Of a stretch of 64,000 nucleotides of DNA, positions 46,060-46,583 are shown piece by piece (position 1 is the stretch's first letter; every line of letters begins with the position of its first letter). The DNA is from a virus, in the IMG/VR virus record IMGVR_UViG_3300045988_085724, positions 32,001-96,000 of that record; one strand, written 5' to 3'. Both the position numbers and the translations under genes were made by a program. A model generated the notes under the pieces. It was given only the letters and a program-made list of their open reading frames with translations, was not told where the DNA came from and made no database searches.

Positions 46060-46125
46060 ATCCCCTGATGAGTCTTTGAAAATTAAGACGAAACATTCTC
46101 ACATGCATTATGAGAGTGTCGGGAT
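46060..46125 (+). ncRNA. hammerhead ribozyme, type I, canonical core (HH1); predicted cleavage after C46120
   Basis: Stem I is ATCCC/GGGAT, followed by CUGAUGA. Stem II is GUCUU-UGAAAAUU-AAGAC, followed by GAA. Stem III is ACAUUCUCA-CAUGCAUUA-UGAGAGUGU, followed by C17. Confidence 0.8.
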
Positions 46126-46496
46126 ATCAATTAAGATGTTCAATGGTTTTGTAGATCTTACGGTCCATTAATAAAAGATCTACAGCAACTGTGATACGCT
46201 AAACAAATTGGTCATCATGGCACAGCATGGCGAACTATCGCTTAAATAGTTAGTATTTTAGAACCGGTTGGGCTCCCTCGACCCATATCGGTAGAATAGA
46301 GGGTGTATTACTGCGCAAAAATTGTTTGAACAAATGGTTGAAATTGTATACAGGTTTGCGGAGAACAATGTAATACAGAACATATCTATCTTCAACTGTA
46401 GACATGTATTATTAAACTCGCACTATCTGTAATTTTGCAACAGATTAGCGACGTGACCCACGCGTAAAGTGGCGACGTCATCCAGGAGACGTTAAA

Positions 46497-46583
46497 ATTC
46501 ACACTGATGAGACTGGACGAAACACAGAGAGAAACTATTGACTCAACTTACTAGTAGTTAATAATGGCTCTGTGTCTGTGAAT
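46497..46583 (+). ncRNA. hammerhead-like ribozyme, type I, minimal stem II GACUGGAC (HH2); predicted cleavage after C46576
   Basis: Stem I is AUUCACA/UGUGAAU (7 bp), followed by CUGAUGA, GACUGGAC and GAA. Stem III is ACACAGAG...CUCUGUGU (8 bp, 38-nt loop), followed by C17. Confidence 0.6.

Follow-up and report, generated by a model that had tools for sequence, protein, structure and literature searches.

In a 64,000-nucleotide (nt) stretch of viral DNA (positions 32,001 to 96,000 of IMG/VR record IMGVR_UViG_3300045988_085724; hereafter the window), two hammerhead ribozymes of the same sense, which we call HH1 and HH2, are predicted to cut a phage transcript after positions 46120 and 46576. 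Our preferred reading, to which we assign a probability of roughly 60%, is that the locus encodes a ribozyme-delimited, accessory, linear structured non-coding RNA (ncRNA) within a phage transcript that is processed by tandem hammerheads. From the sequence we infer cleavage in vivo, release, linearity and stability of this RNA, and its action in trans. An initial annotation of the window had proposed the two cut sites; both hammerheads, their shared sense and their spacing of 456 nt were confirmed by reading of the sequence and by a motif scan. The window is nearest to crAssphage cr131_1 (NC_055902; Crassvirales, Suoliviridae, Oafivirinae), whose source was rhesus macaque faeces, with 76–91% identity. 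Comparisons draw on about 20 related phage contigs (denoted by L numbers), in which homologous loci were located through the protein of 235 amino acids (aa) encoded upstream of HH1, through DNA patterns and through GenBank.

The hammerheads of the window and the predicted product are as follows.

46060–46125, plus strand: HH1, a type I hammerhead with a canonical stem II of 5 base pairs (bp); cut between C46120 and G46121
46121–46576, plus strand: predicted 456-nt product, starting at G46121 with a 5'-OH and ending at C46576 with a 2',3'-cyclic phosphate; contains the whole HH2 body
46475–46583, plus strand: HH2, a RAGATH-1-type type I hammerhead; cut between C46576 and U46577
48880–48949, plus strand: HH3, a RAGATH-1 hammerhead (Rfam, 66.9 bits); cut after C48944, 116 nt before a tRNA-Gln gene

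HH1 reads AUCCC CUGAUGA GUCUU-UGAAAAUU-AAGAC GAAA CAUUCUCA-loop-UGAGAGUG UC^GGGAU from 46060 to 46125, the caret marking the cut. Its core at 46065 is complete (CUGAUGA ... GAAA ... U-C^), with every core nucleotide there. Stems I, II and III have 5, 5 and 9 bp, the last including A15.1-U16.1; stem I is open, and stems II and III are closed by loops. The minimum-free-energy fold of 46036–46135 is the exact three-way hammerhead junction. Core and stems are kept in 16 sequence variants, among which the core is invariant except at N7 and for a U4-to-C change in L017 and L031. Compensatory changes were seen in stem II (GUCUU/AAGAC to GUCUC/GAGAC), in stem I (AUCCC/GGGAU to AUCCA/UGGAU) and in stem III, which is also remodelled in L017. 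We regard HH1 as a genuine-looking type I hammerhead for which self-cleavage is predicted. An HH1-type core and stem II loop (CCCCUGAUGAGUCUUUGAAAAUUAAGACGAAAC) are found again, at 92–100% identity, in cr53_1 and cr273_1, two other crAss-like phages, and in OP172633 and OP172634, two Agathobaculum phages (Firmicutes host).

HH2 matches the RAGATH-1 family (RF03152) at 46475–46581 with 67.7 bits, against a gathering score of 56.3 (E = 2.9e-9). Its core is at 46504, and it has a 7-bp stem I, a long stem III and a stem II of one bp, instead of which the loop CCAG of an upstream hairpin pairs with CUGG in the stem II loop as a pseudoknot. This RAGATH-1 pseudoknot covaries, being CCAG/CUGG in HH2, CCUAG/CUAGG in L017 and CCGAG/CUCGG in HH3, and stem I of HH2 is compensated in L011 (CACA/UGUG to CAUU/AAUG). 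Reading and the motif scan together gave three complete type I anatomies in the window, all on the plus strand and within 2.9 kilobases (kb), compared with a chance expectation of 0.155 per dinucleotide-shuffled window in a lenient scan of both strands. A fourth CUGAUGA...CGAAA match, at 52756, was rejected; it lies within a coding region and lacks hammerhead stems. Compared with the window, L018 is 93% identical in the HH1 region and 97% in the HH2 region, but only 43% in the flanking protein. Judged by such comparisons, both ribozymes are clearly maintained in relatives.

The same two hammerhead subtypes occur in reverse order in cr272_1 (L005), a phage of a different genus, at 3002–3074 and about 4376–4416. 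They lie 1.3 kb apart, separated by two small genes and about 800 nt of non-coding repeats, and the region shares stretches of about 40 nt with the window that are identical.

If both ribozymes cleave, a 456-nt RNA with the ends listed above follows from hammerhead chemistry, as had been proposed. Such ends, 5'-OH and 2',3'-cyclic phosphate, are substrates of RtcB. The segment had also been described as free of open reading frames (ORFs), which holds in substance: all of its ORFs are of 51 aa or less, and neither their strand nor their frame is conserved among relatives. These small ORFs were accordingly rejected as coding. The claim that the segment is GC-richer than its surroundings proved weak; its value of 0.39 exceeds those of the window (0.36) and the downstream ORFs (0.33) and is below that of the upstream ORF (0.47).

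Within the cargo, by which we mean the part of the product upstream of HH2, RNAalifold on an alignment of homologues gave a conserved core domain.

46304–46407, plus strand: core domain of about 105 nt, with four helices and a loop-loop pseudoknot
46304–46311 with 46370–46377, plus strand: P1, UGUAUUAC/GUAAUACA
46321–46327 with 46363–46369, plus strand: P2, AUUGUUU/GAACAAU
46330–46335 with 46354–46359, plus strand: P3, ACAAAU/GUUUGC
46380–46389 with 46398–46407, plus strand: P4, with the invariant loop CUUCAAC
46336–46342 with 46391–46397, plus strand: loop-loop pseudoknot GGUUGAA/UUCAACU, joining the apical loop of P3 to the loop of P4

P1, P2 and P3 together make up one long hairpin, and P4 forms a second. 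The alignment held eight and later 12 homologues, and pairs were counted on 12 sequences and 38 pairs. Standard pairs are formed in 98.2% of cells, against 36–46% when the 3' partners are slid, and 16 of the 38 pairs have changed on both sides. The observed percentage paired, count of both-side changes and covariation score were not matched by any of 500 shuffles. The loop-loop helix itself is compensated twice, from GUUGAA/UUCAAC to GUUUGAA/UUCAAAC in L017 and to AUUGAG/CUUCAAU in L011. The initial annotation had suggested a search for covariation within 46121–46576 by comparative genomics, and covariation in the core at 46304–46407 is strong. By this comparative evidence, the cargo segment is under selection as RNA. 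Three invariant G-U pairs (alignment columns 38:74, 46:65 and 100:109) would read as C-A mismatches on the opposite strand, so the fold is specific to one strand, and its sense is that of the ribozymes.

A covariance model of the core, R1, gave a single match per genome, always between HH1 and HH2. Its matches comprise the window and 12 other loci (L014 with a cut-off match, L001 with the cr131_1 copy); elsewhere in the approximately 650 kb of phage DNA examined it found nothing. Among GenBank phages, and likewise in IMG/VR pattern scans, cr131_1 was the only source of core homologues, and a pattern scan of JGI metagenomes returned two contigs. Four pattern matches in GTDB genomes were assigned to chance by their covariance-model scores. 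Compared with Rfam 15 at gathering and at permissive E-values, no part of the cargo (46121–46474) belonged to a family, the best matches being spurious and below threshold (SNORD112, 21.7 of 58 bits; C0719, 14.6 of 50 bits). The sequence of the P4 loop (CUAUCUUCAAA) is present as a perfect tandem duplicate in non-coding DNA of cr272_1 (L005 2467–2488), upstream of the RAGATH-1 hammerhead of that phage; R1 gives no match there.

Around the core, the product contains further hairpins and conserved blocks, all on the plus strand.

46121–46141, plus strand: 5'-terminal hairpin GGGAUAUC...GAUGUUC (minimum-free-energy fold)
46151–46183, plus strand: perfect hairpin of 9–10 bp, GUAGAUCUU/AAGAUCUAC (inverted-repeat search)
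46189–46249, plus strand: conserved block of the variable 5' module, CUGUGAUACGC...GUCAUCAUGGCACAGCAUGGCGAACUAUCGCUUAAAUAG (sequence comparison)
46425–46445, plus strand: P5 hairpin, AUCUGU-loop-ACAGAU (reading of the alignment by eye)
46448–46472, plus strand: conserved GCGACGUGACC element, with the CCAC-GCGUAAA-GUGG hairpin

Two of these helices had been reported before: the one at 46151–46183 exactly as given here, and the CCAC/GUGG hairpin one base away from its place at 46458–46472. The portion GGGAUAUCAU(U/A)AAGAUGU of the 5' hairpin is conserved in the window, L011, L014, L018 and L022. Counterparts of the hairpin at 46151–46183 have other sequences (GUAGUCU/AGACUAC in L018, GCGUCU/AGACGC in L014), and cr131_1 has none. 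The block at 46189–46249 is 96–100% identical to cr131_1 and L014 and is missing from L016, L011 and L023. By eye, the P5 stem changes on both sides, from AUCUG/CAGAU in the window to GUCCG/CGGAC in L011 and ACCUA/UAGGU in L018. The start of HH2 and the GCGACGUGACC element form a direct repeat. After the CCAC/GUGG hairpin, most relatives carry an extra pseudoknotted hairpin module of 40–60 nt that is cleanly absent from the window between 46472 and 46473. Its stem covaries (CAAUGAAG/CUUCAUUG to AAUUAGG/CCUAAUU), as does its loop pairing (CCGUUU/AAACGG to UCGUUUU/AAAACGA), both again by eye.

The distance between the two cut sites differs widely among relatives.

118 nt: L029 and L030, with the ribozymes back to back and a 13-nt spacer
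182 nt: L006–L010, with an unrelated 75-nt filler
387 nt: L017
407 nt: L070
434 nt: L023
456 nt: the window
461 nt: cr131_1
499 nt: L027
501 nt: L011
508 nt: L031
511 nt: L024
551 nt: L018
561 nt: L022
563 nt: L026

In addition, L015 has HH1 without HH2, and L028 has neither ribozyme. The position of the unit also shifts relative to a gene of about 120 aa, which it precedes in the window and follows in L014 and the L018 group, and the presence or absence of tRNA-Met is independent of the cargo. With cargo, position and tRNA all shifting, the locus is a mosaic of modules, namely the ribozyme pair, the cargo and the tRNA. Going by these alignments, the cargo is an optional, size-variable accessory cassette. 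In three other IMG/VR phages (L064, L083 and L060), the same ribozyme type flanks small ORFs. Many short-read contigs (L007, L008 and L013–L016) end in or just after the unit, and NC_055902 starts inside HH2 with a 141-nt terminal overlap; such ends probably reflect assembly breakage at a strain-variable or repeated region, not a genome end.

Under the preferred reading, a polycistronic phage transcript would be cut co-transcriptionally by three type I hammerheads, after 46120, 46576 and 48944. In type I hammerheads, the ribozyme body remains on the 5' product. Each upstream piece would thus carry a folded ribozyme and a 2',3'-cyclic phosphate at its 3' end, and each downstream piece would start with a 5'-OH. 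Four pieces are expected: upstream messenger RNA with a terminator-like hairpin and HH1; the cargo with HH2, as a stand-alone linear non-coding RNA of 456 nt; a leader, tRNA-Met, ORFs and HH3; and a leader, tRNA-Gln and ORFs. The second of these would consist of the 5' hairpin, variable hairpin modules, the pseudoknotted core of about 105 nt and HH2 as its 3' end. Following cleavage, the 5' hairpin at 46121–46141 may re-pair the 3' strand of HH1 stem I and so disfavour re-ligation. Relatives keep both ribozymes without cargo, with unrelated short cargo or with longer versions, which suggests that the ribozymes serve in their own right to process or insulate transcripts; the interval they enclose would then serve to set a structured RNA free from both neighbours. 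Release from both neighbours would fit a stand-alone RNA better than a cis-regulatory leader, and the released RNA is most likely stable and trans-acting, for instance through binding to a factor of the phage or host.

Several points weigh against this reading. HH1 scores below all Rfam hammerhead thresholds (27.4 of 56.3 bits for RAGATH-1; 24 of 48.5 bits for Hammerhead_3, type III). With its normal 5-bp stem II and these scores, it is best described as anatomically complete and not as a scored member of a curated family. A tertiary contact between its stems I and II was not identifiable; the upstream flank could pair with loop II (AUUUU/AAAAU), a pairing that lacks covariation support. Four ribozymes carry the U4-to-C change (CCGAUGA), namely HH1 in L017 and L031 and HH2 in L024 and L027; they belong to different lineages and to both subtypes and have intact stems, and the change could mean relaxed or tuned activity. 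The covariation is drawn from about six independent lineages. Thermodynamically, neither the whole segment (z = −2.3) nor the core (z = −1.1) is remarkably stable, and the evidence for the cargo fold is comparative. As the cargo is dispensable in close relatives, any function would be accessory. Finally, a consensus scan identified no promoter, and the terminator-like hairpin that lies upstream of HH1 makes read-through into the unit an assumption.

The alternative that survives best, which we consider rather unlikely, is that the cargo acts in cis, either as a sensor or aptamer through which cleavage by HH2, and hence the maturing of the tRNA or messenger RNA downstream, is tuned, or as a processive antitermination RNA like HK022 put. 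The put RNA has a two-hairpin architecture, which the core resembles. The core domain always lies upstream of HH2, 15–150 nt away, although this spacing varies. The conserved GCGACGUGACC element repeats the 5' strand region of the essential upstream hairpin of HH2, but L017 keeps the core without that element. In the minimum-free-energy fold, GACGU (46450–46454) pairs with ACGUC (46475–46479), which would disable the HH2 pseudoknot, and an alternative pairing of the core interior is possible in 88% of cells. The candidate switch helices, however, lack covariation, and the alternative interior fold from single-sequence energy minimization does no better than shuffles and was rejected. Both ribozymes also persist without any cargo, and release at both sides fits cis action poorly.

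The initial annotation had likened the architecture to hammerhead-flanked circular RNAs such as retrozymes and viroid-like RNAs. Its description of a hammerhead-bracketed, structured non-coding segment stands, whereas the defining features of such circles are absent. We consider it very unlikely that the 456-nt RNA is circularised by an RtcB-type ligase into a retrozyme- or viroid-like circle. The ends of the product are by established chemistry those that RtcB joins, and the different stem I sequences mean that a ligated circle could not re-cleave and would be stable. Spliced or circular products have been raised as a possibility for tandem phage hammerheads, where they were not detected (PMC3088659). 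Against a circle, HH1 and HH2 are type I hammerheads of two subtypes and not repeat copies, and their stems I differ (AUCCC/GGGAU and AUUCACA/UGUGAAU), so that the excised ends cannot rebuild a hammerhead; the HH2 strand AUUCACA facing GGGAUAU makes three of seven pairs, and these are non-contiguous. No direct repeats resembling long terminal repeats (LTRs) flank the unit, the only direct repeat common to both ribozymes being the 11-nt core. The minimum-free-energy fold is a string of local hairpins, not rod-like, with the two ends in separate hairpins and unjoined by any helix. Unit length ranges from 118 to 563 nt among relatives and is thus not fixed, the unit occupies a fixed syntenic DNA locus in many phage genomes, and no RNA ligase is annotated in cr131_1, the closest phage.

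We find it just as unlikely as a circle that the cargo is functionless, with insertions gathering in a safe gap between tandem ribozymes, or with the ribozymes themselves as decaying relics. The presence, absence and replacement of cargo among close relatives would suit this idea, as would the U4-to-C variants, a degraded HH2 upstream hairpin in L006 and the frequent breakage of assemblies at the locus. It is opposed by compensatory changes in the five core helices including the pseudoknot, in P5, in P6 and in all ribozyme stems, which imply purifying selection on RNA structure, and by ribozyme sequences that are far better conserved than the neighbouring proteins. That the conserved hairpins act as DNA, as protein-binding sites or as an origin or recombination site, is extremely unlikely: the P4 loop sequence (UAUCUUCAAAC) is tandemly duplicated in non-coding cr272_1 DNA and the region is a hot spot of recombination and indels, but the invariant G-U pairs make the structure specific to the transcribed strand, the element sits between two same-sense ribozymes that work at the RNA level, and the loop motif (UAUCUUCAA) is not enriched in the window, which also led us to reject a dispersed binding site.

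Beyond the preferred reading of a linear, ribozyme-released ncRNA lies a larger claim that we regard as doubtful, namely that the cargo is a founding example of a class of ornate phage ncRNAs released by ribozymes, in which a twin-hammerhead cassette makes a stable, end-protected, trans-acting RNA. Such an RNA could, for example, be a decoy or binder of a host or phage factor; it might be ligated by host RtcB into a circle that cannot be re-cleaved, and it might self-associate through its covarying kissing loops. If this were true, the cassette would be a general modular expression unit, shuffled among crAss-like phages by recombination at near-identical ribozymes.

The hammerhead locus lies within a block from about 41 to 64 kb of the window in which every gene is on the plus strand, and which includes ThyX and many small ORFans. 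In cr131_1, the counterpart block runs on into replication genes. Neighbouring ORFs had no match in PHROG or Pfam. The features bordering the unit are listed below.

45989–46011, plus strand: terminator-like hairpin CCCGC-AUAA-GCGGG followed by UUCCAUUUU (called by eye from the sequence)
46600–46621, plus strand: hairpin motif UUGACA-ACCUG-GAAUAGA-CAGG, one copy in the window, after HH2
46721–46795, plus strand: tRNA-Met (CAU), 145 nt past the HH2 cut site (ARAGORN and Rfam)
49060–49131, plus strand: tRNA-Gln (UUG), downstream of HH3 (ARAGORN and Rfam)

The terminator-like hairpin sits between the stop codon of the upstream 235-aa ORF (45965–45967) and HH1. It was not reported by a consensus scan, and it is kept in relatives; L017 has a different G+C-rich hairpin with a U-run in the same place.

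The description of the unit as directly upstream of a tRNA was borne out by the tRNA-Met gene, which is not present after HH2 in six relatives (L011, L017, L018, L022, L026 and L027). Of 47 RAGATH-1-type hammerheads in IMG/VR, two had a tRNA within 300 nt downstream, and both were in cr131_1. Closeness to a tRNA is lineage-specific and not general for RAGATH-1 hammerheads. Given these counts and the several relatives without tRNA-Met after HH2, we rejected the hammerhead as a general processor of tRNA 5' leaders. The leader between HH2 and tRNA-Met (46650–46716; ...GUGAAGGAGUUCUUCGG...AUGGAAGUAACUCUGAC) is conserved even where relatives have no tRNA-Met, with counterparts at 6290–6365 in L017 and about 6890 in L031, and the window copy has an inverted repeat at 46674–46706.

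The hairpin motif after HH2, with the general form UUGRCA-(G)CCUG-GAAWAGA-CAGG(C), is recurrent beside hammerheads; its stem covaries and its loop is conserved. It stands directly before HH1 in L014, L018, L022, L024–L027, L029–L031 and cr272_1. The latter has five copies (L005 3083–4362), four of them about 115 nt apart. Most copies have no U-run after them. As a promoter, the motif did not fit by eye to sigma-70, Bacteroides −33/−7 or sigma-54 patterns, and a consensus scan was uninformative.

Perreault et al. (2011; PMC3088659) described hammerheads arrayed in tandem around genes of phage and prophage operons, which cleave both in vitro and in E. coli and for which they proposed a role in processing long transcripts into unit-length RNAs; pseudoknot-stabilised forms and occasional core variants were described as well. 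The present locus resembles those arrays in having several same-sense hammerheads within a few kb of co-directional phage genes, with short variable cassettes. The arrangement is kept in relatives. The locus differs in that the HH1–HH2 cassette is a non-coding structured RNA and not a gene (the HH2–HH3 cassette does carry ORFs), and in that the phages here are crAss-like (Crassvirales) and not the prophages of that study, with relatives that show the same ribozyme pair around an empty cassette. HH2 and HH3 are members of RAGATH-1 (RF03152) by score and anatomy, and HH1 is of a different type I kind with a canonical stem II. As in other RAGATH motifs, the cargo is a structured RNA adjoining self-cleaving ribozymes, and it matches no Rfam RAGATH family. 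Retrozymes and viroid-like circles likewise are non-coding RNAs bounded by two same-sense hammerhead sites with the same end chemistry; unlike them, the present unit has type I and not type III ribozymes, of two subtypes, without LTR-like repeats, with variable length and at a locus in a double-stranded DNA phage.

In engineered cassettes (ribozyme-guide RNA-ribozyme, RiboJ and Tornado), flanking ribozymes define the ends of an embedded RNA and uncouple it from its neighbours, and two different ribozymes are used so that the product cannot re-cleave. Here, too, two different ribozymes flank an embedded RNA; the locus, however, is natural, the 3' ribozyme body stays on the product, and there is no end-joining stem of the Tornado type for RtcB ligation. 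GOLLD, ROOL and the stable RNAs of the T4 tRNA cluster are multi-domain pseudoknotted phage ncRNAs near tRNA genes. Like GOLLD and ROOL, the cargo is a phage-encoded pseudoknotted ncRNA adjoining tRNA genes, but it has no Rfam match to either, is smaller and ribozyme-bounded, is confined to one Suoliviridae-like group and is dispensable in close relatives. Theta ribozymes, which are similar to that of hepatitis delta virus, adjoin tRNAs in recoded gut phages (PMC10879173). Self-cleaving ribozymes near tRNAs and a recoded stop codon (here late genes that appear to read TAG as sense) are features shared with those phages; unlike there, the ribozymes here are hammerheads 116–145 nt upstream of the tRNAs and not abutting them, with the tRNAs being of the ordinary Met(CAU) and Gln(UUG) kinds.

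Earlier work has described phage hammerheads in tandem, hammerheads of the RAGATH-1 family, and structured RNAs adjacent to ribozymes. Literature queries on hammerheads of crAss-like phages, or on this RNA, turned up nothing specific. In Rfam 15 and the papers covered by our search, we found no description of a hammerhead-bracketed ncRNA cassette in crAss-like phages, of a presence/absence polymorphism of cargo between retained ribozymes, or of the pseudoknotted core domain, which could be among the approximately 10,000 unnamed candidate viral RNAs of PMC10690425. The locus amounts to a natural experiment, in which the same ribozyme pair encloses no cargo, an unrelated short cargo or a pseudoknotted RNA in otherwise syntenic crAss-like phages. 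CrAss-like phages are among the most abundant phages of the primate gut, and the domain adds an uncatalogued structured RNA to their non-coding repertoire. The role of many bacterial and phage hammerheads is still largely unknown (PMC3088659, PMC6765202). Two ideas become testable at this locus: that phage hammerheads serve as punctuation that processes or insulates transcripts, and that the interval they enclose serves to produce a free-standing ncRNA.

Other observations in the window concern its coding and tRNA-like features. On the minus strand of positions 1–41000, the longest open frame has 509 codons under the standard code and 1594 with TAG read as sense, and the plus-strand block at 41–64 kb is unaffected by that change. 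As long minus-strand ORFs appear only with TAG as sense, the late genes look TAG-recoded. Such recoding is known for some crAss-like phages. ARAGORN found no CUA suppressor tRNA in the window. At 53552–53914 (plus strand), it called a permuted transfer-messenger RNA (tmRNA) with the tag peptide GNYNVVDYTHVA, and cr131_1 has a tmRNA annotated at the homologous place; the Rfam tmRNA_permuted model scored 35 bits there against a gathering score of 47, with nothing at gathering level in the window. Two terminator-like hairpins on the plus strand (53691–53703 and 53959–53971) have an identical 13-nt loop, UUCGUGAGAAUAG, followed by a U-run. The chance expectation for this loop is 0.18 copies per window, and a similar hairpin is present in cr272_1 (L005, about 4560–4590). 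Beside tRNA-Val(UAC) on the minus strand, a tRNA-like gene at 37729–37811 has an anticodon loop of 15 nt (UAACCUUUGGUGAUU). It was called Val(AAC) by ARAGORN and scored 36.5 bits with a 15-nt insertion under the Rfam tRNA model, and could be an intron-containing or non-canonical tRNA.

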